From contig JBDLKA010000031.1 in assembly GCA_039714075.1 (NCBI GenBank), positions 1-34,393 on the forward strand: a stretch of DNA of 34,393 nt. Direction: 5' to 3'. Within the stretch, counting starts at the first letter, position 1. The number at the start of each line of letters is the position of its first letter. Positions 9,359 through 34,393 of this stretch are shown here, in pieces. The notes beneath the pieces are model-generated. The model saw only the letters and a program-made list of their open reading frames with translations. It had not been told where the DNA came from and ran no database searches. Position numbers and translations under genes: made by a program. The DNA is from Candidatus Krumholzibacteriota bacterium. GTDB taxonomy: Bacteria > Krumholzibacteriota > Krumholzibacteriia > LZORAL124-64-63.

Positions 9359-9359
9359 C

Positions 9360-10445: not shown

Positions 10446-10465
10446 GAAAGGGATCCTCCTGTTGG

Positions 10466-11869: not shown

Positions 11870-11897
11870 GATCGACCTTCCGGATTTCCGTTCGTGT

Positions 11898-12193: not shown

Positions 12194-12298
12194 GTCCCTT
12201 GAATGTCAGGTCCCTTGGGTGCTGATTTGAGAGGGAATTCGGACCAAAAGATAACGCAAAACCGTAATTTTGACCCTGAATTTCAGTCTTGTTGCTCG

Positions 12299-12329
12299 AA
12301 AAAGGGGAACCCGGGTTGCCCCGGGTTCC
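12299..12329 (-). terminator. intrinsic terminator
   Basis: GGAACCCGGG-GCAA-CCCGGGTTCC (10 bp, GNRA loop) followed by CCTTTTT. Confidence 0.8.
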
Positions 12330-12373
12330 TGCCGGACGAGTTTTTCGGTCGACGCCGGATCAACCGGGCCGGA

Positions 12374-13012: not shown

Positions 13013-13307
13013 GATTTTCTCCCAAATGTTGGAGGGCGATCATCAACGACTTGGCTGATCGTGAGTGGGATCTCCCTATTCCACCGTCGATCATTGGGGC
13101 ACATCTGCCCATTGAAACCACATTTTCCTTTGGTCCATCTGAGCATAATAGCAACAAACAAGATTGAATCGCAACTGTTTATTACAGAAATTCGAATTTA
13201 ATTGATTACCTAGAAAAAAGGTAGGATTTGGGTGCCCGGTAGGTTTGATCTATATTATCCCACTCGGATCTGCCATGATTGAAAGGCACCGACTTACGGG
13301 AGTTGAA

Positions 13308-14413: not shown

Positions 14414-14770
14414 ATGGAATTCGAGGTTGTCGGAATGGAAAAGAAGCTCTACGAGATGCAGGCCGAGCTCTGCAAGACCCTGTCCAATCCCAAGAGACTG
14501 GAAATCCTGGATATCCTCAAGGAACGTGAGGAAATCTCGGTGAACAGTCTGGCCGAGATGCTGGAAATTCCCAAAGCCAACACCTCGCAGCATCTGGCCG
14601 TACTGCGGCAGGCCGGCGTGGTGAACACCCGCAAGGACGGAATCAACGTCTATTACAGCCTGAAATCCGCCAAGATTTCCGAAGCGTGCTCGTTGACCAG
14701 GCAGATCCTGCTCGAGCGTCTCGAGGACCATGTCAGTCTTTCGGATCTGATCAGGAAGACGGGGGACTAG
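14414..14770 (+). CDS. ArsR/SmtB family transcriptional regulator
   Basis: 118 aa; KTLSNPKRLEIL, SQHLAVLRQAGVV, RKDGINVYYSL winged HTH; two Cys (C20, C92). Confidence 0.92.
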   Translation: MEFEVVGMEKKLYEMQAELCKTLSNPKRLEILDILKEREEISVNSLAEMLEIPKANTSQHLAVLRQAGVVNTRKDGINVYYSLKSAKISEACSLTRQILLERLEDHVSLSDLIRKTGD

Positions 14771-19769: not shown

Positions 19770-20651
19770 CTACCCCACCAGATCCAGAATATCCAGCGAC
19801 CGCTCCATCTCAACATTGATGCGGTCGTAATACTCCATGGTTTCGTCCAGGGTTAACCCCAGGAGGCGCAGGGCATCCGGATCGCAGGTCTGCGGGCCCC
19901 GGGCGCCGGGCGCGCCGTATCCCAGGTCATATGCCATGTAGTCGGCCACGTGGACCAGGGCCGTCAGTTCGGGGGCGCTTGACGAAGCGCCGGGCCGGTG
20001 ATGGAACTGGACCGCGTCGACCACGTTCGGCGAGAATTTCCAGCTGCGGAACACGGTCTTGCCGATGGTGCCGTGATGAATGGGGAACAGTTTCTTTTCG
20101 GCCTCGAACCAGGAAAGGCCCTCGTCGTCGGCGGTCACGCAGATCTCGTCGAAGTCCGACGAGAAATAGTTCTTTTCGATGAGCTTGCCCACGTCGTGCA
20201 ACAGGCCGGCCACGAAGGCTTCCTCGCGGTGGTGCAGGCGGCGGTCCTCGGCGATCACCTTGCTGATGCAGGCCACGGCGATGCTGTGCTCCCAGAACCG
20301 GATCATGTCGATTCCCTCGGAACCCGATTCGTCCTTGAAGTAGTCGAACACCCCGCTGGCCATGGCGGCGCCGCGCACGGCCCGGAAACCCAGGATCACC
20401 ACGGCCCGGCTGATGGTCATGGTCTTGGTGCCGGAGCCGTAGAGCGCGGAATTCACCAGGTGCAGGATCTTGGCCGAGAGGGCCTGGTCCTGGGTGATGA
20501 TTTCGGCGATCTCGGGCACCGAAACGTCGGGATCCTGAAGCTTGTCGAACAGCTTCTGGTAGATCGCCGGCAGGGTGGGGATGTCTTTGACCATCCCCTT
20601 CAGTTCCCGGGGATGGATGTCGAGCAGGGATTTCTCGAGCACCGTGGACAT
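19770..20651 (-). CDS. HDOD domain signalling protein
   Basis: IPTLP, DQALSAKILHLVNS, FWEHS, AGLLHDVGK, HH motifs; ATG 20651 follows AAGGAG. Confidence 0.92.
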   Translation of the reverse strand: MSTVLEKSLLDIHPRELKGMVKDIPTLPAIYQKLFDKLQDPDVSVPEIAEIITQDQALSAKILHLVNSALYGSGTKTMTISRAVVILGFRAVRGAAMASGVFDYFKDESGSEGIDMIRFWEHSIAVACISKVIAEDRRLHHREEAFVAGLLHDVGKLIEKNYFSSDFDEICVTADDEGLSWFEAEKKLFPIHHGTIGKTVFRSWKFSPNVVDAVQFHHRPGASSSAPELTALVHVADYMAYDLGYGAPGARGPQTCDPDALRLLGLTLDETMEYYDRINVEMERSLDILDLVG

Positions 20652-20745
20652 GACGCGCTCCTTACGCACGATTCATTCAAACAGGGCTTCCATAGGGGAT
20701 TATCGGCCGGCTCGGCCTGAAGTTGACTCAAAAACGGGGGGGAGA

Positions 20746-21801
20746 TCAGGCCAAAAAGTCCAGCCAGGGGCCACCGGGGCGGAATTCGGCGGCTTCGCCG
20801 ATGACGGAGGCGGCCAGGGCTCCCGCTTCGGTCAGGAAAGCCGTCAATTCGTCCAGTCGGGCCGCCGGCACGGCAATCAACAGGCCGCCGCTGGTCTGCG
20901 GGTCGTTCAGCAGGCCGATCATGTCCTGGCCCATCCCTTCGGCGTAGCGGATGTCGTCCCCGGTAAAACTGGCGTTGGAATTGGTGCCGCCGCAGGTGAA
21001 GCCCTCGCCGCACAGTTCGACCGCCTCGGGCAGCAGGGGCAGGGCGCCGGTTTCGATGGTCAGGCGGACGTTCGATCCCTTGGCCACTTCCAGGGAGTGG
21101 CCGGTCAGGCCGAAGCCCGTGACGTCCGTGGCGGCGGTGGCCCCGAATTCGTAAAGCCGGGATCCGCAGTTGTTCAAGGTCGTCATGCAGGTGACCAGCG
21201 CTTCGTAGCCGACTTCATCCAGGCGGTCTTTCTTCATGGCGGCGACCAGGGCGCCGGTGCCCAGGGGTTTGGTCAAAACCAGCTTGTCGCCCGCCCGGGC
21301 GGTGCTGTTGCGCAGAATCCTGTCGGGATGCACGGTGCCGGTCACGCTGAGGCCGAACTTGACCTCGTCGTCGCGAACGCTGTGGCCGCCCGCTACCGCG
21401 CAGCCGGCCTCGGCGCAGGTTTCCGCGCTACCGGCCAGGATTTCGCCCAGCACATGGTTCGGCAGACCGACCGGGGGATAGCCGAGCAGGTTCAGGGCCA
21501 TGATCGGCATGCCGCCCATGGCGTAGACGTCGCTGATGGAATTGGCGGCGGCGATCCGCCCGAAGGTGCGGGGGTCGTCGACCACGGGGGTGATGAAGTC
21601 GGCGGTCGAAACGATGGCGCGCCCGTCATCGATCAGATAGACGCCGGCATCGTCCGCGGTGTCGAATCCGACGAGCAGATTCGGCCCGGCCGCGGCCTGG
21701 ATGGGTTCGAGAATTTCGGACAAGTCACCCGGACTCAGCTTCGCAGCTCAGCCCGCGCTCTTGGCGAAACGGGTCAGGAAGATTTTTTCCTCGGACGACA
21801 T
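20746..21801 (-). CDS. selD: selenide, water dikinase (selenophosphate synthetase), selenocysteine-containing
   Basis: DTADDAGVY, DFITPVVDDP, ANSISDVYAMGG, GGHS, TDVTGFGL, DPQTSGGLL. The frame extends upstream through TGA (21748-21750) to ATG 21801 with SD GGAGG: MSSEEKIFLTRFAKSAG-U-AAKLSPGDL; 351 aa. Confidence 0.96.
21722..21750 (-). promoter_or_regulatory. Sec UGA codon plus bacterial SECIS-like hairpin
   Basis: UGA, then 11 nt (GCUGCGAAGCU), then stem GAGUC-CGGGU-GACUU with a G-containing loop. Confidence 0.7.
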
Positions 21802-21855
21802 CACTCACCTCCCTTCACGGTAGTGGGCATAAGGTCGTAACTATGCGCAGGGGTG

Positions 21856-22977
21856 TCAATAGGCTTCACCGAGACCGATGTAGAGGGCCTGGTCGTTCTT
21901 GCCCCACCCGTAATCGATGCGGGCGTTGATCCTGAAGGACTCGATCATGCGGAAGCGCAGACCGATGCCGGCTCCGGGCAGGGTGTCGCCGATGGAAAAA
22001 TCGGACCAGTCCCCGCCCACGAAACCCACGCCCGCAAACCCAACGGCGCCCCAGCGTTTCCAGAAGTTCCAGCGGTATTCGGTTTCCAGCGTCAGCAGTT
22101 TGTCGCCCCGGTAACGGCCGTTCGCGTAGCCCCGCAGGTTCTTCTTGCCGCTGACAATGGCCTGGCCGCTGAAGGGCACGTCGCCGAAGGCCGAGTCCGA
22201 AAAGAGGCGTCCGGCCAGGACGCGCGTGGAGTCGCCCAGGGTCGTGTAGCCGGAAACCGTAATCTTCAGTTTCCGGAAATCCCGGTCCGACCCCAGGGCG
22301 TCGTCGTAGACGTCGAAGCGCACGTTGATATCGGTTCCGGAGGTCGGATACATGATGTGGTCGCGGCCGTCCCATTCCGCATTCATCCCGAGGCTGGAGT
22401 AGAATTCGTCGGGCAATTCGATCAGGCCGGGATCGATGCCGACCTTGGCCGACCAGACCAGGGCTTCGGCTCCGAGGTAGAGCTTTTCCCAGGTCCGGCG
22501 CGATCCCTTGAGGAACAGGAAATCGGAGACGGTGGTGTAGTCCAGGAAGAGGTCCGGAAACCCCGGACCCGCGGACGAAGGATTGAACTGGTACTTGATG
22601 GAGCCGGTGCCGAAGGCCGCGGTGGCCCGCCAGTTGTCGCGGTCCAGGTGGAACGTCTGGAAGGCCATCCCGATCCAGGAGTTGTTTTCGCTGTAAAAAC
22701 CGAAGATGCCCGTACTCGAAGGCGGCAGATCGTCGTCGTGGCGGTCCATCTTGTAATAGGCCATGCCGATGACGCCCAGGCTGAACCCCAGGACCTCGCT
22801 GTAGCCGGGGATGGGGACGGCCGCGAACTTCAGGTTCCTTTCGCCTTCTTCCAGCGCGTAGGCTCCCGAGCTGCCGCCGCTTCCGCCGCCGATTTGCGCC
22901 GCGGCCGGCCCCGGCAGATTTCCCAGGAAAACCAGTACCGCGGCAACAAGAATCCCCCTCGTCCCGTTTCCGGTCAT
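21856..22977 (-). CDS. Omp85/BamA-TamA-like (bacterial surface antigen) outer-membrane beta-barrel without POTRA domains
   Basis: Signal peptide; LRGY...RYRG loop-6 motif, amphipathic strands, C-terminal RIDYGWG...YIGLGEAY. Start could be 22977, 22983 or 22989. Confidence 0.8.
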   Translation of the reverse strand: MTGNGTRGILVAAVLVFLGNLPGPAAAQIGGGSGGSSGAYALEEGERNLKFAAVPIPGYSEVLGFSLGVIGMAYYKMDRHDDDLPPSSTGIFGFYSENNSWIGMAFQTFHLDRDNWRATAAFGTGSIKYQFNPSSAGPGFPDLFLDYTTVSDFLFLKGSRRTWEKLYLGAEALVWSAKVGIDPGLIELPDEFYSSLGMNAEWDGRDHIMYPTSGTDINVRFDVYDDALGSDRDFRKLKITVSGYTTLGDSTRVLAGRLFSDSAFGDVPFSGQAIVSGKKNLRGYANGRYRGDKLLTLETEYRWNFWKRWGAVGFAGVGFVGGDWSDFSIGDTLPGAGIGLRFRMIESFRINARIDYGWGKNDQALYIGLGEAY

Positions 22978-23001
22978 CGTCATCCCCACTTGTGCTTGCC
23001 C

Positions 23002-24717
23002 CTACCTTGTCTTGCCTTTGCCCTCGAGCTTGGCCCAGGAGTCCTTCAAGGTGACGGTGCGGTTGAACACCATCCTGTCCGGCCGGGAGTCCCTGCTGTC
23101 GATGCAGAAATAGCCCTGCCGCATGAACTGGCACCGGTAGCCGGTCTCCTTGCCGGCCAGGCCGGGTTCGAGCTTGGCGTCGGTCAGGATCTCCAGGGAA
23201 TCCGGGTTCAGGTTGTCCATGAAATCGCCGCCCTCTTCGGGGAAGGGTTCACGGAACAGGTTGTCGTACAGCCGCACTTCGGCTTCGACCGCATGCTGCG
23301 CCGAGACCCAGTGCAGGGTGCCCTTGACCTTGCGGCCGTCGGGTGACATGCCGCCGCGGGATTCCGGATCGTAGCTGCAGCGCAGTTCCACGACTTCACC
23401 GCTGTCGTCCTTGATCACCTCGTCGCAGGTGATGAAGTAGGCGTGCTTCAGGCGCACCTCTTTGCCGGGCTTGAGCCGGAAGAACTTGCGGGGAGCCTCT
23501 TCACGGAAATCGTCGCGTTCGATCCACAGCTCGCGGGAGAAGGGCACCATCCGCGTGCCGGCACCTTCATCCTCGGGGTTGTTGATGCATTCCAGTTCCT
23601 CGACCTGGTCGGCGGGATAATTGGTGATGACCACCTTCAGCGGCCGCAGCACGACCATCACCCGGTCGGCGGTGCGGTTCAGTTCCTCCCGCAGCGACCA
23701 TTTCAACAGGTCCAGATCCACGGTCGAGTTACGCTTGGCCACGCCGACGGTTTCGGCGAAGCGCCGGACCGACTCGGCGGTGTAGCCCAGCCGCCGCAGC
23801 CCGCTGAGGGTCGGCATGCGCGGGTCGTCCCAACCGCCGACCACCTTGTCGTCCACGAGCTGCTTCAGCTTGCGCTTGCTCATCACGGTATAGGTCAGGT
23901 TCAGCCGCGCGAATTCGGTCTGATGGGGTTCGTAGGGCACCGGCAGGTTCTGGATGAACCAGTCGTACAAAGGCCGGTTGACCTCGAACTCCAGGGTGCA
24001 CAGGGAATGGGTGATGCCCTCGATGGCGTCGCTCTGCCCGTGCGCGTAATCGTACAGCGGGTAGATGTTCCAGGTGTCCCCGGTGCGGTGGTGGGGCACC
24101 TTGCGGATGCGGTAGATCAACGGGTCGCGCATCTTCATGTTCGAGTGCGCCATGTCGATCTTCGCGCGCAGGGTGTAGGCGCCCTCGTCGAACACGCCGT
24201 TCTTCATGCCCTCGAGCAGGGTCAGGCTTTCCTCCACCGGGCGGTCGCGGTCCGGACTGTCGACGCCCGGTTCGGTCACCGTGCCGCGGTACTGGCGGAT
24301 TTCGGTTTCGCCCAGGCTGCACACGTAGGCCTTGCCTTCGCGGATCAGGTGCTGCGCCCATTCATAAAGCGTGTCGAAGTAGTCCGACGCGTAGAACTCG
24401 CGATCCTCCCAGTCGGCCCCCAGCCAGCGCAGATCCTCCTTGATGGAATCGACGTACTCGACGTCTTCCTTCTCGGGATTCGTGTCGTCGAAGCGCAGGT
24501 TGAACTTGCCGCCGAATTCCTGGGCGATGCTGTGGCTCAAAAGGATGGCTTTCGAGTGCCCGATATGCAGGTAGCCGTTGGGCTCGGGAGGAAAACGCGT
24601 GTGCACCCGGCCACCGCCCCTGCCGGCCTCCACATCGGCCTTGACCATGGCGCGGATGAAATCCAGGTTCTCGCCCGCCTCTTCGGCGGGAGTTTCAGCA
24701 TTGCGGTCGTCATTCAT
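23002..24717 (-). CDS. glnS: glutamine--tRNA ligase
   Basis: [55 protein letters not shown]; no YqeY tail. Start moved to ATG 24717. Confidence 0.96.
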
Positions 24718-24827: not shown

Positions 24828-26144
24828 CTACCCTTGGACGGTCTTCATCCCCGGGCGGGCCGGCTGGTCCACCGATTCGGTCTGCCAGAGCCGGCTCAGG
24901 AAATAGACCAGCAGGGTGACCGTGGAATAGAACTTCAGGGAGACCAGCAGGCTCATCGGCCCGCCGCCTTCGATGCGGAACAGATAGGACAGGGGCCAGG
25001 CCAGGATTCCGGTGGCCAGGCCCACCGGGACCGCCACGTAGACCGACATGCGCCCGCGGAAGATGTGGACCACCGCCAGCAGCGCCGCCGGCAGCACGAA
25101 GACCAGATGGTGCTCCCACGACAGCGGGGCGATCAGGAAGATCGCCAGCAGCACGGTGGCGATTTCCTCGTTCACGTAACGCCGCCGCGGACGGTTGTTC
25201 ATGCGGCGGCCGAACCAGACCAGGATCCCGACGATCAATCCGGCCAACAGGGTGGGAACCAGGCGGGCCGCGACAGGATTGAGGGCCAGGGCGTAGTCGG
25301 GGTGCAGAAACAACCGCGCGGTGAACCCGTTGATGCTCTGGTTCCAGGGCATGGCCGGCGAAAATAGATGGAAGGGGACGGCGGCATACCCGCCGGTTGG
25401 TGCGACAAAACGGATCCAGTCATCCCAGGTTCCGCTCGGCAGGATCACCAGGCTGGCCAGGGCCAAGGCGGCCGAATACCCCAGGGTCCAGGCCGCGATG
25501 CGATACTGCCGCCGCACCAGAAGCAGGGGCAGAAAGATGGCGGGGTAGGTCTTCAGGATTATGGCCAGGGCCAGAGGGGCCGCAGTCATGGCCGCGGGCT
25601 TGCCTTCGCGCAGCCACACCCAGAACAGGCAGATCTGGGTCATCACCACCAGGTTGATCTGGCCGTGCCGCAAAGTCACGACCACGGGATGGAACTGCAG
25701 CGTGTACAGCAAAAGCACCGGCAGGATCAGCCAGGACAAGGCGTTTGATTCCTCTGCGGCGGGCGGTTCCAGGGGCGAGGGCAGCCTGAAGATCCGGAAC
25801 AGCAGCAGGTACAGCAGGAACAACAGGCTCAAGTGGTTGATAACCAGGGCCGCGGTCTTGGCTCCCTCGTAGGAAAACCAGGAAAAGGGCACGAAAAACA
25901 GCAGGCTCGGGGGCGGATAGAGGTAGGGGAACACCTTCTGCTGCAGCTTTTGTTCGGTTTCGCTCCAGGCATCGGGGCGGTAGGGTGATTCGTGCTGGTT
26001 GAAGACCTCGTCGGAGGCATAATAGAACGACGGCAGATCGATGTTCTTCTTGTCCGCCAGCTGAAAACCGTTGGTTGTCAGGAAGGGGACATACAAGAAC
26101 AGGAAGACCAGGATAAGGGTCAGTCGGCCTTTGGTTGCGGACAC
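24828..26144 (-). CDS. GT87 (DUF2029) membrane glycosyltransferase
   Basis: DLPSFY, YLYPP, GQIN, IILKTYP, NQS, PLSWEHH; multi-TM. GTG 26144 follows GGAGGG (alternative start 26159). Confidence 0.88.
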   Translation of the reverse strand: MSATKGRLTLILVFLFLYVPFLTTNGFQLADKKNIDLPSFYYASDEVFNQHESPYRPDAWSETEQKLQQKVFPYLYPPPSLLFFVPFSWFSYEGAKTAALVINHLSLLFLLYLLLFRIFRLPSPLEPPAAEESNALSWLILPVLLLYTLQFHPVVVTLRHGQINLVVMTQICLFWVWLREGKPAAMTAAPLALAIILKTYPAIFLPLLLVRRQYRIAAWTLGYSAALALASLVILPSGTWDDWIRFVAPTGGYAAVPFHLFSPAMPWNQSINGFTARLFLHPDYALALNPVAARLVPTLLAGLIVGILVWFGRRMNNRPRRRYVNEEIATVLLAIFLIAPLSWEHHLVFVLPAALLAVVHIFRGRMSVYVAVPVGLATGILAWPLSYLFRIEGGGPMSLLVSLKFYSTVTLLVYFLSRLWQTESVDQPARPGMKTVQG

Positions 26145-26335
26145 GGGCGATCCCTCCACCTCGCTGTGTGGGCAATTAAAGCGAGGTGATCAATGCGAAA
26201 ATTCCGGGCGATTGTTCCCTGAAAAAAATGTGCCGACCTGTTCGACGCAATGATTTTGATTGAAAAACAGGAAAAAATCCCCTCCACTTAAGCCCGGAAA
26301 ATCGAGATGACTTAACGTTTTCGGAAAGAGCGATT

Positions 26336-27205
26336 GTGACTGATGGGAGCAATAAGGTTCATGCGGTGATTCTGGTGATCCTGAGCCTGGCGGTGGCCGT
26401 ACTGATCGGTTGGGTGTTGTGGACGGGATCCGATTACTACGCCACTTCCCTGCCGGACAGACCCCACCACGAGGACTTCCGCTCCATGAGGCCGGCCGGC
26501 CGGGTCGGTCACGGTCTGGGGATCCTCGGCAGCCTGATGACGGTCGCCCTTCTGGTCTACTCCCTGCGCAAACGAATCCGGTTCATGCAACGCTGGGGCG
26601 ATCTGAGGGTCTGGCTCCGCTACCACATTTTCCTGGGCGTGGTCGGACCGGTGTTGATTACCCTGCATACCTCGTTCAAGATCGACGGCCTGGTGGCGGT
26701 CAGCTACTGGTCCATGTTCGCCGTCGCGGTCAGCGGGGTGTTCGGCCGTTATCTCTACCAACAGATTCCCCGCAACGTATTGGGGGAAGAACTCGGCGCG
26801 GACGACATCGAATCCCGCAACGAGGCCATCCTGGTCGAACTGTCCGAAAACCACGGCGTGGGCGACAGGGAAGTGGAGGCGCTGGAGAACCTGGCCCTCG
26901 GTCCCCTGGAAAACAGGCCCGCCCTGCTGGCCCTGATCATTCTACCGGTTGTTAATATTATGTTGGCCCGCCAATTGCATACCTGGTTGATGGGATTTTC
27001 GCGCAACCCCGGGATTCAGACCGGGAATCTGGCGCGAAACTGGGTTTTGCAAGCCAGAAGGCTGCATCTCTTTCATCTGATACGGGACCTGTTCCACTGG
27101 TGGCATGTATTTCATAAACCCTTTGCTTTCATCATGATATTGATCATGATCGTGCATGTCGCGGTGGCGCTGGCCCTGGGTTATACCTGGGAATTCGGGA
27201 GTTGA
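26336..27205 (+). CDS. inner-membrane di-heme b (ferric-reductase-TM/cytochrome b-like) protein
   Basis: 289 aa, about 5-6 hydrophobic helices; His pairs H97-x13-H111 and H260-x13-H274 lie in TM helices; YSLRKR, SGVFGRYLY, WHVFH motifs. Confidence 0.75.
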   Translation: MTDGSNKVHAVILVILSLAVAVLIGWVLWTGSDYYATSLPDRPHHEDFRSMRPAGRVGHGLGILGSLMTVALLVYSLRKRIRFMQRWGDLRVWLRYHIFLGVVGPVLITLHTSFKIDGLVAVSYWSMFAVAVSGVFGRYLYQQIPRNVLGEELGADDIESRNEAILVELSENHGVGDREVEALENLALGPLENRPALLALIILPVVNIMLARQLHTWLMGFSRNPGIQTGNLARNWVLQARRLHLFHLIRDLFHWWHVFHKPFAFIMILIMIVHVAVALALGYTWEFGS

Positions 27206-28929
27206 TGAACTTCACGTCCAATATTCGCTGGTTCCGACCTCCCGCAGAGACGGGTTGGTTCCTGACGTGGACCATTTTCACGATGATAATGGTCCTCAAT
27301 TTCAACAACATGGCCTGGGCCCAGCTTTCGCCGGGTCCGTTGAGCCGTCCCCATGCCCACCTCGAAGGCCTGAAAAAGTGTTCCAACTGCCACAAGTTGG
27401 GCAGCCGCCAGGTCGGTGAAAAGTGTCTGGAATGCCATCAGGAAATCGCCGCCATGAGGCGTGGCGGTTCCGGGTTGCACGCGGGGGATGATTTCGGCGA
27501 CTGCGTGACCTGCCATGTCGAGCACCAGGGCGAGGATTTCGAACTGATCTATTGGCCCCAAGGGACCGAAGGATTCGACCACCGGACCGCGGGATTCGAA
27601 TTGACGGGCCGGCACCAGGATCTCGGTTGCCGGAAATGCCATTACGCCAAATACGTGGTCGATGCCAGCGCCTTGAAAGCGAAAAACAAGAACCTGGGCC
27701 GCACCTACCTGGGTCTGGATCCGGCCTGCATCTCCTGTCACGAGGATGTTCACCGGCCCGCTGGTCAGGCGACTGCGGCGGTGAAAGCCTGCACCGATTG
27801 CCACGACACGGCCAGGTGGAAGCCGGCGCCGTTGTTCGTTCACGACAAGACGGCGTTTCCCCTGACCGGCAAGCACAAGGTCGTTGACTGCGCCAAGTGT
27901 CATGTTCCGTCCACCGATAACGGCAAGGATTTATCGGCCCTCGTTTTTGCGGCGCTTCCCCATGCAACCTGCACCGACTGCCACAAAGATCCCCACGCCG
28001 GGGCCCTGGGGCCCGACTGCCGCCAGTGCCACACCACCGAGGGCTGGCTGGTGATAAAGGGGGATTCCTTTGATCATTCCCGGACCCGCTACCCCTTGCT
28101 GGGGCTTCATGCCAAGGTGACCTGCGCGGGCTGCCATTCGCGGAACCGGAAAAAACCCGACTTCACCGCCTGCAACTCCTGCCACGGCGATGCCCACGAC
28201 AGCGCCGGCCTGGCCCGGCCCCGCCTGGGAAGATGTGAAGATTGCCACACCGTCGACGGCTTCCGTCCGGCGGAGTATTCCCTGGCCAAGCATGCCGAAA
28301 CGGCCTTCGGTCTGCGCGGCGCCCACCGGGCCACTCCCTGCAACGCGTGCCATAAACCGCGGGGTGCGGGTCTGGACCCGAAGGCGGCCGAACTCGTGCC
28401 GGCGCACGGCGCCTGCACGGATTGCCATCAGGATCCCCATCGGGGCCAAACCGGGAAATACCTCGCGGACCGGGGGTGCGCCGCCTGCCACACCGAAGAT
28501 TCCTGGAGGGTGGTTTCCTTCGACCACGAACCCACGGGATTCAACCTGGAGGGGCGCCACGCCGGGACCGCCTGTTTGTCCTGCCACCCGCGGTCGGAAG
28601 CCGAGGTGCCCTTCGCGGGGGCGGCCCGGCATTGCGCCGGCTGCCACGAGGATGTCCATCGGGGCCAGTTTGCCGACAAGGTGACGGCCGACGGCCAGGC
28701 CGTGGCCTGCGACCATTGCCATGTGACAGTGGATTGGCTGGCGGAAAAATTCAACCATGACCGGGACAGCGTATTCGCCCTCAAGGGCGGGCACGAACGG
28801 GTGGCCTGCACCGTCTGCCATCGCCCCCTGCAGGATGGCAACGACCGACTTCTCCACTTCAAGCCGTTGCCGACGGCCTGCAAGGATTGCCACGTCCATG
28901 TTCCGGGTCCCGGAGGGGATAACCGATGA
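27205..28929 (+). CDS. exported multiheme cytochrome c, 20 CxxCH
   Basis: Signal peptide ending AWA|QLSPG; 20 CxxCH motifs counted by hand; repeated F-x-H...FxLxGxH...CxxCH tri-heme units. ATG overlaps the upstream TGA. Confidence 0.95.
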   Translation: MNFTSNIRWFRPPAETGWFLTWTIFTMIMVLNFNNMAWAQLSPGPLSRPHAHLEGLKKCSNCHKLGSRQVGEKCLECHQEIAAMRRGGSGLHAGDDFGDCVTCHVEHQGEDFELIYWPQGTEGFDHRTAGFELTGRHQDLGCRKCHYAKYVVDASALKAKNKNLGRTYLGLDPACISCHEDVHRPAGQATAAVKACTDCHDTARWKPAPLFVHDKTAFPLTGKHKVVDCAKCHVPSTDNGKDLSALVFAALPHATCTDCHKDPHAGALGPDCRQCHTTEGWLVIKGDSFDHSRTRYPLLGLHAKVTCAGCHSRNRKKPDFTACNSCHGDAHDSAGLARPRLGRCEDCHTVDGFRPAEYSLAKHAETAFGLRGAHRATPCNACHKPRGAGLDPKAAELVPAHGACTDCHQDPHRGQTGKYLADRGCAACHTEDSWRVVSFDHEPTGFNLEGRHAGTACLSCHPRSEAEVPFAGAARHCAGCHEDVHRGQFADKVTADGQAVACDHCHVTVDWLAEKFNHDRDSVFALKGGHERVACTVCHRPLQDGNDRLLHFKPLPTACKDCHVHVPGPGGDNR

Positions 28930-30167
28930 AGCGCCTGATTTTGATTCTGCTGTTGATCCCCGTTACGGCCCCCGGTCAGGAAGACGGCTCCGGCCCCCGG
29001 GTGGGCAATCCCCATGGGGACATGAACCTGGACTGCATGCTGTGCCACACCGAGCAGTCCTGGGATGAAGAAGGACGGGCCGGGGAATTCGACCACGCGG
29101 TCACCGGGTTTGCGCTCGAGGGGCTACACATCCATGCCCGGTGCCGGGATTGCCATCGGGAACCCGTGTTCGCCCACGTCGGGACGGCCTGTGCGGACTG
29201 CCATCAGGATATCCATCGCGGGCGGGAGGGCCCGTCCTGCGGCGATTGCCATACCCCGGCCGGATGGGTGGACCGGGACCGGATGCGCCGGGACCACGAT
29301 GCCACCGCCCTGCCCCTGGTCGGCGCCCACGAACGCGTGGATTGCGACGCCTGTCATTCGGGGGCCGCGGGTTCCGACTACGTCGGCACACCGGTCGACT
29401 GTTACGACTGCCACGCGGAGGTCTACCACGGGACGACCAGTCCGGATCACGAGGCATCGGGATTCGGGACCGATTGCATCAGGTGCCATGGCGTCTTCTC
29501 GGCGACCTGGGGTGCGGGTGATTTCATCCATGCGGCGTCGTTCCCGCTGACGGGCGCCCACCGGTATCTGGAATGCGCCGCCTGCCACGAGAACGGTTTC
29601 ACCGGCACGCCGACCGATTGCGTGGCATGCCACCAGGACGATTACGACAGCACTTTGAACCCTGCCCATCCGGCCGCGGGATTTTCCACGGATTGCCGTC
29701 CCTGCCACGCGACATCGGCCTGGGTCCCATCGTCCTTCGACCATGGCACCACGGCGTTCCTGTTGACCGGTGCGCATCGTCCCTTGGACTGTCTGGCTTG
29801 CCATGACACGGGGTATGCGGGCACGCCGACCGATTGCGTGGCATGCCACCAGACCGAATATGACGGCACCACGGGTCCCAATCACGTGGCGTCGAATTTT
29901 CCCGTCACCTGCGCCGACTGCCATTCGACCTCTGCCTGGATACCTTCCACCTGGGACCACGAGACGTTGTTCCCCATCCGCGGCGGGGCCCATTCGGGGA
30001 CCACGTGTACGGATTGCCATGTGGTCCCGACGGACTATTCTGCTTTCGAGTGCATTCTCTGCCATGAGCACAACCAGAGCGATTCGGACAACGATCACAG
30101 TGAAGTGTCCGGGTATTTTTACCAGAGCTCCGAATGCTTCCGCTGCCATCCGCGGGGGACGAACTGA
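28926..30167 (+). CDS. exported multiheme cytochrome c, 16 CxxCH
   Basis: Signal peptide MKRLILILLLIPVTAPG; 16 CxxCH counted; ~72-aa tri-heme repeats; SD GGAGGGG; ATGA overlap. Confidence 0.95.
   Translation: MKRLILILLLIPVTAPGQEDGSGPRVGNPHGDMNLDCMLCHTEQSWDEEGRAGEFDHAVTGFALEGLHIHARCRDCHREPVFAHVGTACADCHQDIHRGREGPSCGDCHTPAGWVDRDRMRRDHDATALPLVGAHERVDCDACHSGAAGSDYVGTPVDCYDCHAEVYHGTTSPDHEASGFGTDCIRCHGVFSATWGAGDFIHAASFPLTGAHRYLECAACHENGFTGTPTDCVACHQDDYDSTLNPAHPAAGFSTDCRPCHATSAWVPSSFDHGTTAFLLTGAHRPLDCLACHDTGYAGTPTDCVACHQTEYDGTTGPNHVASNFPVTCADCHSTSAWIPSTWDHETLFPIRGGAHSGTTCTDCHVVPTDYSAFECILCHEHNQSDSDNDHSEVSGYFYQSSECFRCHPRGTN
29604..29852 (+). repeat. 33-bp exact direct repeat inside the 16-heme gene
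   Basis: GGCACGCCGACCGATTGCGTGGCATGCCACCAG at 29604-29636 and 29820-29852; period 216 nt = 72 aa (GTPTDCVACHQ). Confidence 0.9.
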
Positions 30168-31759
30168 TGTGGCGCCGGGCGGCATTCCTGATTTTGGTCC
30201 TGACGGCCTTTGCCGGCGCCGCGGCCGCGGAAGAGTTGGTTTGTGGTGTGCGCTATCTTTCCGCCGAACACGTCTACCTCGATGCCGGCAGCGGCGCCGG
30301 ACTGACCGTGGGCATGAGAGCCAGGGTGGTTCGCGACGGCCGGGCGGTTGCTGAACTGGAAGTCGTTTTTACCGCCGAGCATTCGGCGTCGTGCCGGATC
30401 ATCAGCGGCGATGGTGATGTCCAGGCCGGCGACAGGGTTGTTTGCGAGGTGGCTGATTCGACCGCCCCCGAGGTGGTTGTTGCCCCGGTGCCTCAGCGAA
30501 CACGGACCGGGTTCAAGGGCGAATCCCCCGTAGCTTCGCACAAGGGACCATCGGTCAGCGGATCGATCGCCCTGCAATGGGATCACACCGATGAATTCGC
30601 CGACCGCTCCCTTGAAACCAACCTGTACAGCCTGCCTTTCCGGTTGAAGGTCACCAGGCTGGGAAACATGATGGAATTCCGGGCCCGGGGTTCGATCCGG
30701 CACATTCTGCGGTCGGGGTATCACGCGACAACTGCGGATCAGGAGTGGCGCAACCGCATCCGGGAAGTGGCCCTGGTGCGCGACGGCCGCGAACTGGACT
30801 GGCATTTCGCCGTGGGACGGGTCGGGGGACGCTACACGGCATCGGCCGGACCCTTCGACGGCCTGAGTTTCAACCATCGCGTCGGCGGCGGGATTCGCCT
30901 GGGGGCCTTCGGCGGCTTCGCACCCGAATGGGGGGATCTGGGGTTCGGCACGGATGATCATCTGGCCGGCGTCACCTTCCACCTGAACCATCGCGCCGAG
31001 GGCGGGGGCCTTCTGGACATGGTCGTGGCCGGGGTGGGCCGCTACCGCGAGGGCGAGATCAGCCGCGAGTACGTGACCATGACCACGACCTGGAATTCGG
31101 GCCGCCGGTTGAGTCTGCTGCAAGCCGCGGAATTCGATATCAACCGCGGCTGGCGCAAGGAGGCCGCCGGCACCGGTCTGGAAGTTTCGAGTCTGGCCCT
31201 GACCGGCCGCTACCGTTTCTCGCGTGGAGTCAATGTGAGTCTCGGCTACGACGACCGTGCTCCGGTACGCACCTGGGAGACGAAATCCTTGCCCGACCGC
31301 TTGTTTACCGAGGCGGGCCGCATCGGTTGGCGCGCGGGGATGAACCTGCGTTCCCCCGGCGGCCTGGGTCTGAATCTGTCGGGCACGCTGCGGGACGATG
31401 AGCGCACCGCTGAAACCAGCACTTCCTGGAGCGCCCGGGCCTACGCTCCCAACTGGCCTGTACGTCGGTTGAGCCTGGATGCCTCGGTGCGCGGCTTCGA
31501 CGGACCCTACCTGTCCGGCTGGGCGCCGATGGTCGGAGCCACGAAAACCACCACGGGCGGGCTGCGGCTTCGCCTGGAGGGTGGTTATTATGGATACTCG
31601 GGCAGCGTGGGCGACGACCAGCGTTCGAACAGCTGGGTGAAGGCGGGGGCGGCCCAGGACCTGTCGGCGCACTGGACCGTGGGCGCGGACTACCGCCACG
31701 ACTGGGGTGACGACATCGCGGGCCGCCGGTGGTTCCTGGAGATGCGCCACCGGTTCTGA
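30167..31759 (+). CDS. outer-membrane beta-barrel (putative cytochrome-associated porin) with N-terminal FlgT_C-like beta domain
   Basis: ATG 30167 overlaps the upstream TGA; signal peptide ...AAA|EE; many alternating amphipathic strands; C-terminal WFLEMRHRF ending in Phe. Confidence 0.8.
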   Translation: MWRRAAFLILVLTAFAGAAAAEELVCGVRYLSAEHVYLDAGSGAGLTVGMRARVVRDGRAVAELEVVFTAEHSASCRIISGDGDVQAGDRVVCEVADSTAPEVVVAPVPQRTRTGFKGESPVASHKGPSVSGSIALQWDHTDEFADRSLETNLYSLPFRLKVTRLGNMMEFRARGSIRHILRSGYHATTADQEWRNRIREVALVRDGRELDWHFAVGRVGGRYTASAGPFDGLSFNHRVGGGIRLGAFGGFAPEWGDLGFGTDDHLAGVTFHLNHRAEGGGLLDMVVAGVGRYREGEISREYVTMTTTWNSGRRLSLLQAAEFDINRGWRKEAAGTGLEVSSLALTGRYRFSRGVNVSLGYDDRAPVRTWETKSLPDRLFTEAGRIGWRAGMNLRSPGGLGLNLSGTLRDDERTAETSTSWSARAYAPNWPVRRLSLDASVRGFDGPYLSGWAPMVGATKTTTGGLRLRLEGGYYGYSGSVGDDQRSNSWVKAGAAQDLSAHWTVGADYRHDWGDDIAGRRWFLEMRHRF

Positions 31760-31783
31760 TTTCTTCCATACACTGGGGTAAGC

Positions 31784-33115
31784 GTGGAAACAATCCTGAT
31801 ATGGGCCGTGGTCCTGACGCTGGTGATCACCAGCGTGTCGATTTATGCGGTCCGGTTTCGCCGCCAACGGGAGTCGGATACCCAGCGGTTGCAGCAGACC
31901 CGCGAACTCGGCATGGACAAGGCCTCGGGCCAGTATCCTTTGATCGACGCGGGGGCCTGCATCGGCTGCGGCACCTGCGTGGCGGCCTGTCCCGAGGGCG
32001 ACGTGCTGGGCGTGGTCATGGGCAAGGCCGTGGTGATCAACGGCGCCCGCTGCATCGGCCACGGCAAGTGCGCCGAGGCCTGCCCCGTCGGCGCGATCAA
32101 GGTGGGCCTGGGCGACATCACCAAACGCGACGACATTCCCCTGCTGGACGATCACAACCAGACCAACGTGCCGGGCATCTGGATTGCGGGTGAACTCAGC
32201 GGTTTCGCCCTGATCAACAACGCGGTGGAGCAGGGCCGGAAGGTCATGGAGCGGATCGCGGCGGTGCGTGGACCGGTTTCCACCGCCGCGCGCGAAGGGA
32301 TTCTCGACGCCGTGGTCGTGGGCGCCGGACCCGCGGGCATGAGCGCGGGGCTGGTGGCTTCCGATAAAGAACTGTCCTGCGTGATCCTGGACCAGCAGGG
32401 CGCCGGCGGCACCATCCTGCAATATCCACGGCGCAAGCTGGTGATGGTCCAGCCGGTCGAAATTCCCCGCCTGGGCCGCCTGCCGCGGCACGAGTACAGC
32501 AAAGAGGAACTCCTGGAAATCTGGGAGAAGCTGCATTCCGATTTCGGACTCGATATCCGGACCGGGGTTAGAGTGACCGGCGTTGCGGGCGAATACGGAA
32601 ACTTCGTGGTGCAGACTTCCGCTGAAGAATTCCGCTGCCGCAACGTGATCCTGGCCCTGGGCCGCCGGGGCACACCCCGCCGACTCAACGTCCCGGGCGA
32701 GGATTTCGCCAAGGTCGCCTACAAACTCATCGACGCCGAGGCCTACAAGGGGCGCCGCGTGATGGTGGTCGGCGGCGGCGACTCGGCGGTGGAAGCCGCC
32801 ATGGGACTGGCCCATCAGGAAGGCTGCCGGGTGACAATTTCCTACCGCAAGGCCGAGCTCATGCGGATAAAGCAGCGCAACGCCGACCGGATCGCGCCGC
32901 TGATCGCGGACGGGACCCTGGACTTCCTGGGCGCGACGACGGTGACCTCGATCCAGGAGGACAAGGTGGCGCTGGACGGACCGAGCGGTCCGGTCATCGT
33001 GCCGAACGACCAGGTGTTCATCCTGGCAGGCGGAATTCCGCCCTTCGGTTTTTTGCGGGAACTGGGCGTGAAATTCGGCGGCGACCAGCCGGATATTGCG
33101 GCGGTGGCCGGCTGA
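31784..33115 (+). CDS. membrane-anchored 2x[4Fe-4S] ferredoxin / TrxR-fold FAD-NAD(P)H oxidoreductase fusion
   Basis: N-terminal TM helix followed by RFRR; CIGCGTCVAACP and CIGHGKCAEACP; GAGPAG (FAD); GGGDSA and SYRK (NADPH-type); no redox CxxC. Confidence 0.9.
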   Translation: METILIWAVVLTLVITSVSIYAVRFRRQRESDTQRLQQTRELGMDKASGQYPLIDAGACIGCGTCVAACPEGDVLGVVMGKAVVINGARCIGHGKCAEACPVGAIKVGLGDITKRDDIPLLDDHNQTNVPGIWIAGELSGFALINNAVEQGRKVMERIAAVRGPVSTAAREGILDAVVVGAGPAGMSAGLVASDKELSCVILDQQGAGGTILQYPRRKLVMVQPVEIPRLGRLPRHEYSKEELLEIWEKLHSDFGLDIRTGVRVTGVAGEYGNFVVQTSAEEFRCRNVILALGRRGTPRRLNVPGEDFAKVAYKLIDAEAYKGRRVMVVGGGDSAVEAAMGLAHQEGCRVTISYRKAELMRIKQRNADRIAPLIADGTLDFLGATTVTSIQEDKVALDGPSGPVIVPNDQVFILAGGIPPFGFLRELGVKFGGDQPDIAAVAG

Positions 33116-33121
33116 CCGTCC

Positions 33122-34189
33122 CTAGATTCTCAACCTCCCTTCATGATGCAGGCGGTGGCACCCGGAACAAAGGGTGACCAGGTTTTCGGGATCGTTTCCG
33201 CCGCCGACCGACCTGGGCCGGACGTGATGAACCTCCAAAAACCGACTGTTTCCACACCCGGGAGCCCGGCAGCGATAACGGTCGCGCTGAAAAACCTCGA
33301 ATCGCCGACCCGGCGCAATGGTGGCGGTGTTTGGTTTACCCGCCTGTTTGACGCGGGCGTCACATTCGGCGCGTTTTGCGTCAGCCTCCGAAATATCCAG
33401 TTCACCCCGGCTGGTTTGAACCGTCGATTTGGAGCACTCGGGACACCGATGGACGTGGACCTGGAAGGGGGAGGAAAAAACCCGCCGGCGGGCCGGTGTG
33501 GCGGAAGACGTTTCTTCGCACCCATTTATGGGTTTTGGTGTTCCCCGGGCCAATTCTTCCAGACCTGACAGCATGGCGTCCACCCGACTCGAGCCCCCGG
33601 GAACCGCGTTCAATTTTCGGATTTTTTCCATCAACGCTTCAAAACGTGCAAACTGTTCCGGGGTCATTTCCAGGGACATGCGCACGGGCGTTTCAGCAAC
33701 CAGTTTCCTTTCGGTTGGGTTTTCACTCAACAGGGTGCCCTGACCCTTCTGGTTTTTTCGCCGCCGCGCCTTGGCCTTGACCCGTTTCACCTTTTTAGCC
33801 AATTCCCTGCGGCCGGTTTTGGCGGCTTCGGCAACCCAGTGATCCTCCGTCACCGGGGTGGCGACCTTGATGATCTCAACCACCTTTGTGTACCCGAGGT
33901 CACCGTCAGCCAACGATTTCGCCACAGCGGGCAATTCATCCAGCTTGCGGGCCAGGCGCATGAAGTCCCCGGTCCTGGTTTTCGAGAACTTCAACTCGGA
34001 TGAGGCGTACTGGGGCATGTTTGAATAGCCCAGCTTTCGAAAGAGACCGCGCTTCATGATGTCGGCGAACCAGAGTACAGCGCGGTGCTTGGCGTCATCC
34101 ATCTCACTGATGGCGGTTTTGAGGGAGGAATCGGCGACGGCGGCGGACTGACCGGTCTGGAAACCGGCAGCGGTAGGGATGGTAATCAT
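33122..34189 (-). CDS. HNH endonuclease-family protein with helical N-terminal domain and CxxC
   Basis: C-terminal RDRYRCRAPGC...LEVHHVRPRSVGGGNDPENLVTLCSGCHRLHH; HRCPEC. Start at ATG 34189 is supported by alignment to the left paralog; 355 aa. Confidence 0.9.
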   Translation of the reverse strand: MITIPTAAGFQTGQSAAVADSSLKTAISEMDDAKHRAVLWFADIMKRGLFRKLGYSNMPQYASSELKFSKTRTGDFMRLARKLDELPAVAKSLADGDLGYTKVVEIIKVATPVTEDHWVAEAAKTGRRELAKKVKRVKAKARRRKNQKGQGTLLSENPTERKLVAETPVRMSLEMTPEQFARFEALMEKIRKLNAVPGGSSRVDAMLSGLEELARGTPKPINGCEETSSATPARRRVFSSPFQVHVHRCPECSKSTVQTSRGELDISEADAKRAECDARVKQAGKPNTATIAPGRRFEVFQRDRYRCRAPGCGNSRFLEVHHVRPRSVGGGNDPENLVTLCSGCHRLHHEGRLRI

Positions 34190-34218
34190 GATATTTTTCC
34201 AATCTGGGAGGTGCAACC

Positions 34219-34247
34219 AATATGGCGAACAAAAGACGAAAATGCCA
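34219..34247 (-). promoter_or_regulatory. promoter of the right HNH gene, with a TTTC-N7-GTTC box
   Basis: TGGCAT (34242-34247), 17 nt, CATATT (34219-34224); homologous to 353-381. Confidence 0.55.
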
Positions 34248-34328
34248 GAAAAACTTTGCCCTTTTCCTGAAATTTCCGGTATGAAGTAGGCGACAGCCTG
34301 AACCATCCGAATTATGAAAGGCGCCACC

Positions 34329-34393
34329 GTGCCCCTGGAAATCCATCCCCGCTTCCGCTGGACGGAACTGGTCCTGAACCAGCCGCCGCGCAA
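34329..34393 (+). CDS. 5' end of a gene running off the window, possibly enoyl-CoA hydratase/crotonase family
   Basis: GTG after GAAAGG; MPLEIHPRFRWTELVLNQPPR... resembles the crotonase LNRPPxN N-terminal motif. Only 21 codons are visible. Confidence 0.35.
   Translation, partial: MPLEIHPRFRWTELVLNQPPR

Follow-up and report, generated by a model that had tools for sequence, protein, structure and literature searches.

We analyzed a five-gene operon (positions 26336 to 33115, forward strand) in a 34,393-nucleotide (nt) stretch of DNA, hereafter the window, from contig JBDLKA010000031.1 of Candidatus Krumholzibacteriota bacterium (GCA_039714075.1), a 4.06-Mb metagenome-assembled genome (MAG) of 260 contigs that is 92% complete. 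Its five co-oriented, tightly packed open reading frames (ORFs) encode an inner-membrane protein (g1, referred to below as the IMP), two multiheme cytochromes (g2 and g3), an outer-membrane beta-barrel (g4), and a membrane-anchored flavoprotein (g5, referred to below as FLAVO). We regard it as moderately probable that the operon specifies a PCC3-like porin-cytochrome conduit for electron export, whose input is a split, NOX-like transmembrane NAD(P)H dehydrogenase. The evidence for this reading, taken from sequence comparison and structure models, is the strict conservation of g5 with g1, the natural fusion of the two, the invariant histidines of g1, and the predicted size of the g4 barrel.

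A conduit running from NAD(P)H to the cell exterior had already been proposed for this DNA in an earlier reading of the letters (the original prediction), and that overall view is supported here, the support being comparative and structure-predictive in kind. The prediction also described the locus accurately. ORF analysis and inspection of the junctions recovered five co-oriented genes, of which the first four overlap and the fifth lies 24 nt further on; g1 has the two H-x13-H helices, g2 and g3 have exactly 20 and 16 CxxCH motifs, and an AlphaFold2 (AF2) model with its Foldseek matches bears out the outer-membrane barrel. Hydropathy and Pfam likewise recovered g5 as an N-anchored protein with ferredoxin, FAD, and NAD(P)H domains after an RFRR sequence. 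The part that did not stand, the assignment of two [4Fe-4S] clusters to g5, is taken up below.

The flavoprotein is conserved with the inner-membrane protein

To characterize the association between g5 and g1, we collected 28 genome loci around g1 homologs from relatives and the GTDB genome collection. All five genes were present in each of the 20 loci that reach far enough (18 by tblastn, and 2 from Gemmatimonadales in which the barrel was detected by hidden Markov model [HMM] only). In the remaining 8, the contig breaks off short of where g5 would be expected. Another 79 loci came from metagenomes (IMP identity, 33 to 75%). Here, a FLAVO was called at more than 150 bits to the FLAVO profile, and a locus was considered informative if its barrel ORF was complete and the sequence extended at least 1.4 kb past the barrel and at least 1.4 kb ahead of the IMP gene. 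We found FLAVO in 32 of these loci, 47 were too short to judge, and no informative locus was without it. FLAVO also adjoined the IMP gene in nine of ten further Gemmatimonadota loci, on the opposite strand in seven, and the tenth was too short. In one Gemmatimonadales MAG (G208), the whole cluster is duplicated, and the two near-identical copies lie on separate contigs (L037 and L038).

The pair stayed together through rearrangement. The gene orders seen were IMP-cytochrome-cytochrome-barrel-FLAVO, as in the window, IMP-FLAVO followed by cytochromes, and FLAVO-IMP followed by cytochromes, and in Gemmatimonadota FLAVO is divergently transcribed beside the IMP gene; at least four changes of order map onto each of the IMP and FLAVO trees. 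The phyletic patterns agreed as well. Among 41 related genomes, 18 encode the IMP, and precisely these 18 also have a full-length FLAVO ortholog (E ≤ 1e-90); five others gave partial paralog matches only. One of the five, the IMP-less genome G034 (98% complete), retains a decayed 160-amino-acid (aa) N-terminal FLAVO remnant (L139, 4657 to 5937, reverse strand; G034:C2). This remnant consists of the transmembrane (TM) anchor and the ferredoxin domain, has a glutamine for the conserved histidine described below, and runs into an unrelated glycosyltransferase gene.

FLAVO and the IMP also occur as single proteins. In P0273 (769 aa), P0274 (774 aa), and P0272 (739 aa), complete halves are joined in frame, and the layout is a TM anchor, the ferredoxin domain, the FAD/NAD(P)H domain, and then a complete IMP with both WxxxHx13H motifs. 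P0273, whose 90%-identity cluster has 18 member sequences, matches g5 over residues 8 to 459 (46% identity, E = 1e-122) and the IMP profile over residues 471 to 757 (hhalign probability 99.5%, E = 1.3e-22). Three clusters of fusion look-alikes of 751 to 805 aa in the ESM Atlas (74, 131, and 56 members) come mostly from Planctomycetota and Myxococcota. The order of domains, with the anchored dehydrogenase ahead of IMP helices TM1 to TM5, is consistent with a FLAVO in the cytoplasm and an IMP whose N-terminus is on the cytoplasmic side; it agrees with the topologies deduced independently for each protein and with the cytoplasmic placement of the flavoprotein in the original prediction. Collectively, the neighborhood in every locus of sufficient length, the identical phyletic pattern, and the fusions support the assignment of the flavoprotein to the IMP system, the co-conservation that the original prediction had called for.

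Several other fusion candidates were rejected. Three apparent IMP-cytochrome fusions (P0238, P0263, and P0270) were frameshift or ORF-calling artifacts, in which the TM5 region is scrambled and the cytochrome still has a signal peptide of its own, and P0259 and P0271 look chimeric or partial. The public predictions P0238, P0263, P0270, and P0259, which resemble an IMP joined to a cytochrome or to half of a flavoprotein, are frameshifted or chimeric gene calls. Long open frames suggestive of an IMP-FLAVO fusion in genomes G025 and G029 turned out to be separate frames.

The IMP is an orphan membrane protein with putative di-heme b motifs

By hydropathy and charge, g1 is predicted to have five TM helices and a cytoplasmic helical insert of about 115 aa (residues 142 to 255), with its N-terminus inside, its C-terminus outside, and a loop (residues 77 to 92) that carries six lysine or arginine residues on the inside. 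The AF2 model is all-helical (predicted local distance difference test [pLDDT], 81.2; predicted template modeling score [pTM], 0.69), with helices at residues 3 to 30, 56 to 80, 90 to 111, 119 to 142, and 227 to 280. An extra hydrophobic stretch (residues 196 to 214) falls in a segment that is deleted in a homolog of the G016 type and thus was not counted as a conserved TM helix. The IMPs of this genus (L018, G016:C3; also G119 and G120) are 236 aa long and do not have about 55 residues of the insert (approximately 163 to 229 in g1), yet they keep all histidine motifs.

In 18 aligned homologs, with identities as low as 27%, W93, H97, H111, S133, G134, G137, W256, H257, H260, and H274 are invariant. 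The H-x13-H pairs H97/H111 and H260/H274 lie within the predicted helices 90 to 111 and 227 to 280, whereas a third such pair, at H45, is not conserved. Among 80 metagenome relatives, all 80 have at least two Hx13H motifs and 70 have both WxxxHx13H motifs. There is no cysteine in g1. Two His-x13-His pairs on two TM helices could accommodate two stacked b hemes, and an arrangement of this kind, four histidines spaced 13 apart, holds such a heme pair in FRD/NOX proteins and cytochrome b proteins. He et al. 2017 argued from the same histidine pattern that the IMPs of PCC3 and PCC4 systems hold two b hemes, as in FRD/NOX (PMC5566968).

The match of g1 to the definition of PCC3/PCC4 IMPs is close. 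Such proteins have about 300 aa and five TM helices (289 aa and five helices in the AF2 model of g1), two WX3HX13H motifs on TM3 and TM5, and SGXXG on TM4 (all invariant in the 18 sequences), and they are encoded beside a porin gene and genes for periplasmic multiheme cytochromes, as g1 is. In Pfam, the only match to g1 was GPI2, at 19.4 bits and under that model's cutoff, and NCBIfam gave no match.

The family is large. At E ≤ 1e-3, 4,647 representative clusters in a library of 1.84 billion proteins matched the IMP, and 883 still did so at E ≤ 1e-30. Within the window's phylum, 82 of 208 genomes encode it (52 of the 125 high-quality ones), as do 63 of 301 sampled genomes of Gemmatimonadota, the phylum of the Gemmatimonadales MAG mentioned above, and its neighbors in the ESM Atlas are from Acidobacteriota and Gemmatimonadota.

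FLAVO is a predicted cytoplasmic ferredoxin-FAD-NAD(P)H oxidoreductase

Domain content and topology indicate that g5 is a membrane-anchored ferredoxin-FAD-NAD(P)H oxidoreductase, predicted to face the cytoplasm. A TM-like segment precedes the ferredoxin domain in 31 of 31 near-full-length relatives, and the sequence ahead of the hydrophobic stretch in g5 has no twin arginine. The first Fe-S motif is canonical (C59xxC62xxC65xxxC69P). In the second (C90xxH93xxC96xxxC100P), a histidine takes the usual place of the second cysteine; it is invariant in 17 FLAVO homologs and is a histidine in 29 of 31 metagenome relatives. The second cysteine of motif 1 is kept in 16 of those 31 and is replaced by serine, isoleucine, or threonine in the other 15. 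The two [4Fe-4S] clusters of the original prediction are thus not established, and both clusters, judged by these motifs, need not be plain [4Fe-4S]. In three class-level relatives with the IMP-FLAVO order (L021 to L023, from G032, G029, and G037), FLAVO has an extra zinc-ribbon-like CPxC...CPxC insert between the TM anchor and the ferredoxin domain.

The C-terminal part of g5 is a two-Rossmann flavoprotein domain in whose homologs the GxGxxG and GGGDSA motifs are invariant. Among solved structures, its nearest relatives are YpdA/Bdr (7a7b, E = 7.6e-21), thioredoxin reductases (TrxR), and the TrxR-type ferredoxin-NADP reductase 3ab1, and g5 scores under every one of the corresponding curated cutoffs. 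The best match to a named family was also YpdA/Bdr (TIGR04018), at 159.8 bits under a cutoff of 339.9; thioredoxin reductase (TIGR01292) scored 80.7 bits under a cutoff of 343.45, and the redox-active CxxC is missing. Indeed, g5 has no CxxC outside the Fe-S motifs, and its three remaining cysteines are unconserved. Relative to YpdA/Bdr, g5 adds the TM anchor and the ferredoxin domain.

Two multiheme cytochromes precede a large predicted barrel

Both cytochromes are densely packed, with 28.8 aa per heme in g2 and 25.8 in g3. Their N-termini resemble signal peptides (...NNMAWA/QLSPG in g2), and neither has a lipobox cysteine. Pfam returned only generic c7/c3 multiheme models for the two proteins. 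Residues 419 to 570 of g2 are weakly like the DmsE/MtrA decaheme model TIGR03508 (50.9 bits against a cutoff of 192.2), and g3 had no NCBIfam match; on the operon cytochromes, the OmcA/MtrC model scored 19.7 against a cutoff of 209 and the HmcA model 29.8 against 400. Among solved structures, g2 had one weak match, to NrfH (E = 4.8e-4), and g3 had none. The genome has four cytochrome c assembly (maturation) genes.

Across related loci, the heme count is conserved in the first cytochrome, whose gene comes directly after that of the IMP or after the IMP-FLAVO pair: 23 of 42 loci have 20 hemes there and 9 have 17. The second ranges from 10 to 73 hemes. Particularly heme-rich second cytochromes occur in L057, L078, and L127, where single ORFs of 1138 to 1784 aa hold 46 or more, 73, and 45 CxxCH motifs, respectively. 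Six other loci have a separate octaheme gene directly before the barrel gene, and in 6 of 6 its best match is the C-terminal half of g3 (residues 181 to 411, approximately; 33 to 39% identity, E = 1e-33 to 7e-44). That half of g3 is thus a candidate partner of the barrel.

The AF2 model of g4 (pLDDT, 79.8; mostly 75 to 97 in the barrel) predicts a 22-strand beta-barrel that is preceded by a signal peptide, a small N-terminal beta domain, and a disordered linker; the numbering of this model starts one codon early, at 30164. The protein ends in phenylalanine (...RHRF). A Foldseek search with the model gave 335 PDB matches at E ≤ 1e-3, and the best 50 of the 335 are outer-membrane beta-barrel proteins, among which the ushers FimD/PapC and the TonB-dependent receptor PfeA have the best TM-scores. 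The usher and PfeA barrels are 24- and 22-stranded and hold folded protein. The original prediction would have been refuted by a barrel too small for a cytochrome; the model is instead that of an usher- or TonB-dependent-receptor-like barrel, which with its 22 strands is predicted to be large enough to sheathe one. In all 21 related loci where a barrel was seen, its gene directly follows the last cytochrome gene.

Organization of the locus

The coordinates of the operon genes, their principal features, and the flanking genes are collected in Table 1. Junctions read from the sequence are compact: g1 and g2 meet in a TTGA overlap, or in TGATG if g2 starts at its alternative ATG, g2 and g3 in an ATGA overlap, and g3 and g4 in TGATG if g4 starts at ATG 30167. 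The genes that bound the operon are both on the opposite strand, and a scan for promoters and terminators around it gave nothing useful. Because the same gene set was found again in hundreds of genomes and metagenome contigs, the five-gene arrangement is not a product of chance. The stretch is present in two DNA runs of one marine-metagenome study, and a look-up in the run index listed no RNA runs that contain it.

Table 1. Genes and features of the operon and its flanks (positions in the window)
Feature	Position	Strand	Basis or remark
GT87 membrane glycosyltransferase gene	24828-26159	-	Pfam; 5' flank of the operon
g1 (IMP)	26336-27205	+	ORF, 289 aa
g1 TM3 motif, W93-x3-H97-x13-H111	26612-26668	+	Invariant in alignment
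g1 TM4 motif, S133-G-x-x-G137	26732-26746	+	Invariant in alignment
g1 TM5 motif, W256-x3-H260-x13-H274	27101-27157	+	Invariant in alignment
g2	27202-28929	+	ORF, 575 aa; alternative start ATG 27205
g3	28926-30167	+	ORF, 413 aa
g4	30167-31759	+	ORF, 530 aa from ATG 30167; first in-frame ATG is 30134
g4 predicted barrel domain	30551-31753	+	Model residues 130-530, 22 strands, DSSP
g5 (FLAVO)	31784-33115	+	ORF, 443 aa
g5 N-terminal TM anchor, residues 4-22, then RFRRQR	31793-31849	+	Hydropathy
g5 two-cluster ferredoxin domain	31940-32101	+	Pfam Fer4_10, E = 3.3e-12
g5 two-Rossmann flavoprotein domain (FAD and NAD(P)H)	32306-33088	+	Pyr_redox_3, E = 6e-43
DUF222/HNH endonuclease gene	33122-34393	-	Pfam; 3' flank of the operon

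The flanks differ among relatives. In the window and two close relatives (L024 and L036), the GT87 gene sits between the gene for glutaminyl-tRNA synthetase and g1, and in other relatives, some of them from the same genus (L003, L005, L025, and L026), the synthetase gene adjoins g1 with no GT87 match in between. At the other end, the HNH endonuclease gene converges on g5, with 6 nt separating the stops. In the same place in the same-genus genome G007 (L011/L035), only the first 29 residues of the endonuclease match, which suggests that this gene is a mobile or decaying insertion. Elsewhere in the window, positions 6095 to 11926 (reverse strand) hold a three-gene RND efflux set that comprises an AcrB-family pump, an HlyD-type adaptor, and an OEP outer-membrane factor. 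Five long ORFs had no Pfam match at E ≤ 1e-5 (14767 to 17964, reverse; 20575 to 21840, 21853 to 23346, 313 to 1311, and 12203 to 13201, all forward). The largest encodes 1065 aa, and some of them may be shadow frames in this GC-rich window.

A proposed route for electrons and its alternatives

Because g5 is predicted to be cytoplasmic and is tied to g1, the simplest reading of the operon is a chain from NAD(P)H through FAD, two Fe-S clusters, and a heme b pair to g2, g3, and the barrel. We infer the cofactors of this chain, the order of its cytochrome partners, its direction, its independence of quinones, and its physiological role from the features described above. NAD(P)H would reduce the FAD of the membrane-anchored g5 in the cytoplasm, and electrons would pass from FAD through the two Fe-S clusters, the second with its invariant histidine, to a cytoplasmic-side heme b of the IMP held by H97 and H260, and then to a periplasmic-side heme b held by H111 and H274. 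From there, they would enter the 20-heme g2 in the periplasm and then the 16-heme g3, whose C-terminal octaheme module is the likely partner of the 22-strand g4 barrel, and would finally reach an extracellular acceptor such as iron or manganese oxides, humics, or partner cells. Outward flow of this kind would be electrogenic and use up membrane potential, which argues for disposal of reducing power rather than energy-conserving respiration. Thus, the role is probably to dump excess NAD(P)H reducing power and so to keep the redox balance of a fermentative or microaerobic heterotroph. In its fullest form, the proposal is a quinone-independent, electrogenic NAD(P)H:extracellular-acceptor oxidoreductase in which a TrxR-like Fe-S flavoprotein sits on, or is fused to, a member of a new di-heme b family and feeds a 36-heme chain and a 22-strand barrel; we put this version forward tentatively, as possible rather than probable.

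A number of observations weigh against this proposal. No FRD/NOX relationship (PF01794) is detectable for g1, which had no Pfam match at E ≤ 0.01. In hhalign comparisons, the IMP alignment reached a probability of 0.3% (E = 0.2) with Escherichia coli MsrQ and 0.1% with YodB (cytochrome b561); a PDB sequence profile search with the IMP gave chance matches only, and Foldseek of the g1 model against the PDB gave nothing at E ≤ 1e-3. The sole structural match of g1 to a heme protein, the di-heme CybB (5oc0), ranked second in VIA-align (Z = 7.7; root mean square deviation, 3.5; 137 residues), with a score inside the noise band stated for that aligner. Putative heme b binding by g1 is therefore argued from the four invariant histidines and not from kinship with FRD/NOX. 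The correlation between the IMP and FLAVO trees (r = 0.91, 43 pairs; Mantel, 0 of 999) adds little, since linked genes share their history anyway. The genome also has menaquinone-pathway MqnA/D, UbiA-family, complex I NuoD, and NapC/NirT-like genes, so quinones are available to the organism, and di-heme succinate:menaquinone reductases share the arrangement of flavoprotein, Fe-S clusters, and di-heme b and end on quinone.

These last points bear on a quinone-coupled module, in which FLAVO and the IMP would act as an NAD(P)H:menaquinone oxidoreductase with a distal quinone site, or the IMP as a quinol-oxidizing cytochrome b, so that the quinone pool feeds the multiheme chain or equilibrates with it. 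CybB, which is the best heme-protein fold match of g1 even if at noise level, is a quinone-reactive di-heme b protein. The MqnA/D, UbiA-family, and NuoD genes speak for the same view, as do the quinone-active cytochrome b that He et al. 2017 proposed for PCC3/PCC4 IMPs (PMC5566968) and the finding that MsrQ binds ubiquinone (PMC12525009). A quinol oxidase, however, would need no dedicated NAD(P)H flavoprotein kept with or fused to the IMP, and the overlap of the IMP gene with the 20-heme gene in the window, together with their immediate adjacency in most related loci, suggests direct hand-over. We consider quinone coupling unlikely, though less so than the alternatives that follow. The principle of moving electrons from NAD(P)H to the periplasm has precedent, which we count in favor of export through FLAVO and the IMP: in E. 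coli, MsrQ, a heme protein of the membrane, receives electrons from a cytosolic NAD(P)H flavin reductase and hands them to periplasmic MsrP (PMC12525009, PMC5676040), and SpNOX is described as reducing cytochrome c directly. The same MsrPQ chain shows that such electrons can serve periplasmic enzymes (PMC12525009, PMC5676040), and it is conceivable that FLAVO and the IMP feed periplasmic multihemes that reduce soluble substrates or store electrons (for detoxification, reactive oxygen species, or metal reduction), with the barrel an ordinary channel and no conduit to the outside. Neither cytochrome has a lipobox, and surface exposure is only putative. We find this improbable given the barrel gene that directly follows the last cytochrome gene in 21 of 21 loci with a barrel seen, the predicted large lumen of 22 strands, and the wire-like spacing of 26 to 29 aa per heme (compare He et al. 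2017, PMC5566968).

The direction of flow and the role of FLAVO itself could also be read differently. TrxR-type ferredoxin-NADP reductases, which are among the solved relatives of g5, work in both directions. Electrons could in principle enter from extracellular Fe(II), minerals, cathodes, or partner cells and be used by FLAVO for NAD(P)H production; PCC3 first came to light in Fe(II) oxidizers and was modeled as an uptake route (PMC5566968), and Mtr/Mto conduits are reported to be reversible (PMC10734462). Import to NAD(P)+ would have to overcome the membrane potential and climb to -320 mV, and no proton pump or bifurcation partner is encoded in the cluster. Outward flow is favored because this import is uphill against both potential and voltage and no coupling device was seen; Pfam also found no carbon-fixation or Fe(II)-oxidation genes within the window. 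We consider inward flow quite improbable. As for FLAVO, its best named family match, YpdA/Bdr (TIGR04018, 159.8 bits), would suit an unrelated neighbor, for example, a thiol-disulfide or bacillithiol-type reductase, that has no part in the conduit. That score is under the cutoff, g5 has no CxxC and carries an Fe-S domain and a membrane anchor, and its strict co-occurrence with the IMP, the neighborhood kept through rearrangements, and the fusions make this explanation highly improbable.

Significance

To our knowledge, every characterized porin-cytochrome conduit draws on the quinone pool, and how electrons enter the bioinformatically defined PCC3 and PCC4 systems has been an open guess since 2017. 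What is new here is that an orphan IMP family without a Pfam model is tied to a dedicated NAD(P)H flavoprotein by neighborhood, phyletic pattern, and natural fusions. This link offers a concrete, testable inner-membrane mechanism for PCC3-like conduits and suggests that extracellular electron transfer by this route is widespread among phyla about which little is known. If the proposal is true, uncultured and largely fermentative phyla (Krumholzibacteriota, Gemmatimonadota, and probably Acidobacteriota, Planctomycetota, and Myxococcota) could unload reducing power onto minerals, humics, or partner cells without the use of their respiratory chain. If quinones are bypassed, the inference of redox balancing and of metal and humic reduction from metagenomes would change, and the operon would provide a compact five-gene NAD(P)H-to-electrode module for engineering.

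Comparison with known systems

In its predicted outer half, the operon resembles the conduits MtrCAB/CymA of Shewanella and OmbB-OmaB-OmcB/ImcH/CbcL of Geobacter, which also combine an outer-membrane barrel with multiheme cytochromes across the envelope; the octaheme module next to the barrel gene in related loci is like OmaB in Geobacter. Dedicated quinol dehydrogenases supply MtrCAB and OmbB-OmaB-OmcB with electrons from the quinol pool. MtrB has 26 strands, compared with 22 in the g4 model. The original prediction had proposed an HMM comparison with such families; the cytochromes score far under the DmsE/MtrA and OmcA/MtrC cutoffs (50.9 against 192.2 and 19.7 against 209) and so have no Mtr sequence membership, and g1 conforms to the PCC3/PCC4 motif definition. 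The Hmc/Tmc complexes of sulfate reducers connect a periplasmic multiheme cytochrome (HmcA, 16 hemes) via a membrane cytochrome b to a cytoplasmic Fe-S protein, and they differ in having other subunits and in lacking both an NAD(P)H flavoprotein and an outer-membrane barrel.

The inner half follows the same logic as NOX/FRE proteins and the Fre-MsrQ system, in which a cytoplasmic NAD(P)H flavoprotein passes electrons to membrane b heme and on to an acceptor on the far side. Split and fused forms exist there and for FLAVO and the IMP alike, and NOX/FRD proteins hold two hemes on His-x13-His helices, like the putative pair in g1. The input module of the operon nevertheless falls outside the NOX/FRE family. 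FLAVO combines a TrxR/YpdA-like two-Rossmann domain with a two-cluster ferredoxin domain and is not of the FNR fold; the dehydrogenase is N-terminal in the FLAVO-IMP fusions and C-terminal in NOX; and the acceptor here would be a multiheme cytochrome c chain, with no detectable FRD sequence similarity in the membrane part.

That related clusters had been noted bioinformatically was guessed correctly in the original prediction, given the fit of g1 to the PCC3/PCC4 IMPs (PMC5566968). The prediction knew of no example with the flavoprotein module, and open-access full text yielded no paper on a flavoprotein-IMP link and none that joins porin-cytochrome clusters with a pyridine nucleotide-disulfide oxidoreductase; within it, HX13H appears with multiheme cytochromes only in He et al. 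2017. The available part of that paper names no flavoprotein for PCC3/PCC4, and its supplementary text, as far as available, has no mention of FAD, NAD, ferredoxin, oxidoreductase, or pfam13247 (PMC5566968). The main text of He et al. 2019 does not mention the inner membrane, NAD, a flavoprotein, or Fe-S (PMC6344600), and the accessible portion of a study of Krumholzibacteria does not mention the cluster (10.1101/2020.09.22.307553). In PCC4 subgroup II, an Fe-S gene (pfam13247) lies directly upstream of an IMP gene with the same motifs, the two being annotated as a single gene in one genome, and this may be a related arrangement; unlike the window, PCC4 has no extracellular cytochrome, and its three periplasmic cytochromes are small, with 4, 5, and 10 hemes (PMC5566968).

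The closest likeness is to PCC3, a system known from bioinformatics. PCC3 comprises an IMP of about 300 aa with five TM helices, SGXXG on TM4, and WX3HX13H on TM3 and TM5, a periplasmic cytochrome of about 21 to 27 hemes, a variable second cytochrome, and a porin (PMC5566968, PMC10734462). The operon has a 289-aa IMP with these motifs, a 20-heme first cytochrome, a second cytochrome that varies from 10 to 73 hemes across relatives, and a barrel; g2, which follows the IMP, matches the "periplasmic" cytochrome of PCC3, and the variable second cytochrome matches the "extracellular" one. The window IMP is likened to the published IMPs by motifs and gene neighbors, and by these the cluster is a PCC3-like putative porin-cytochrome system. 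The PCC3 IMP has been modeled as quinone linked and described in Proteobacteria (PMC5566968), whereas the variant in the window occurs in Krumholzibacteriota, Gemmatimonadota, and others. Another difference lies in the input: the available text names no flavoprotein for PCC3 (PMC5566968), and in the window the input would be the flavoprotein g5.

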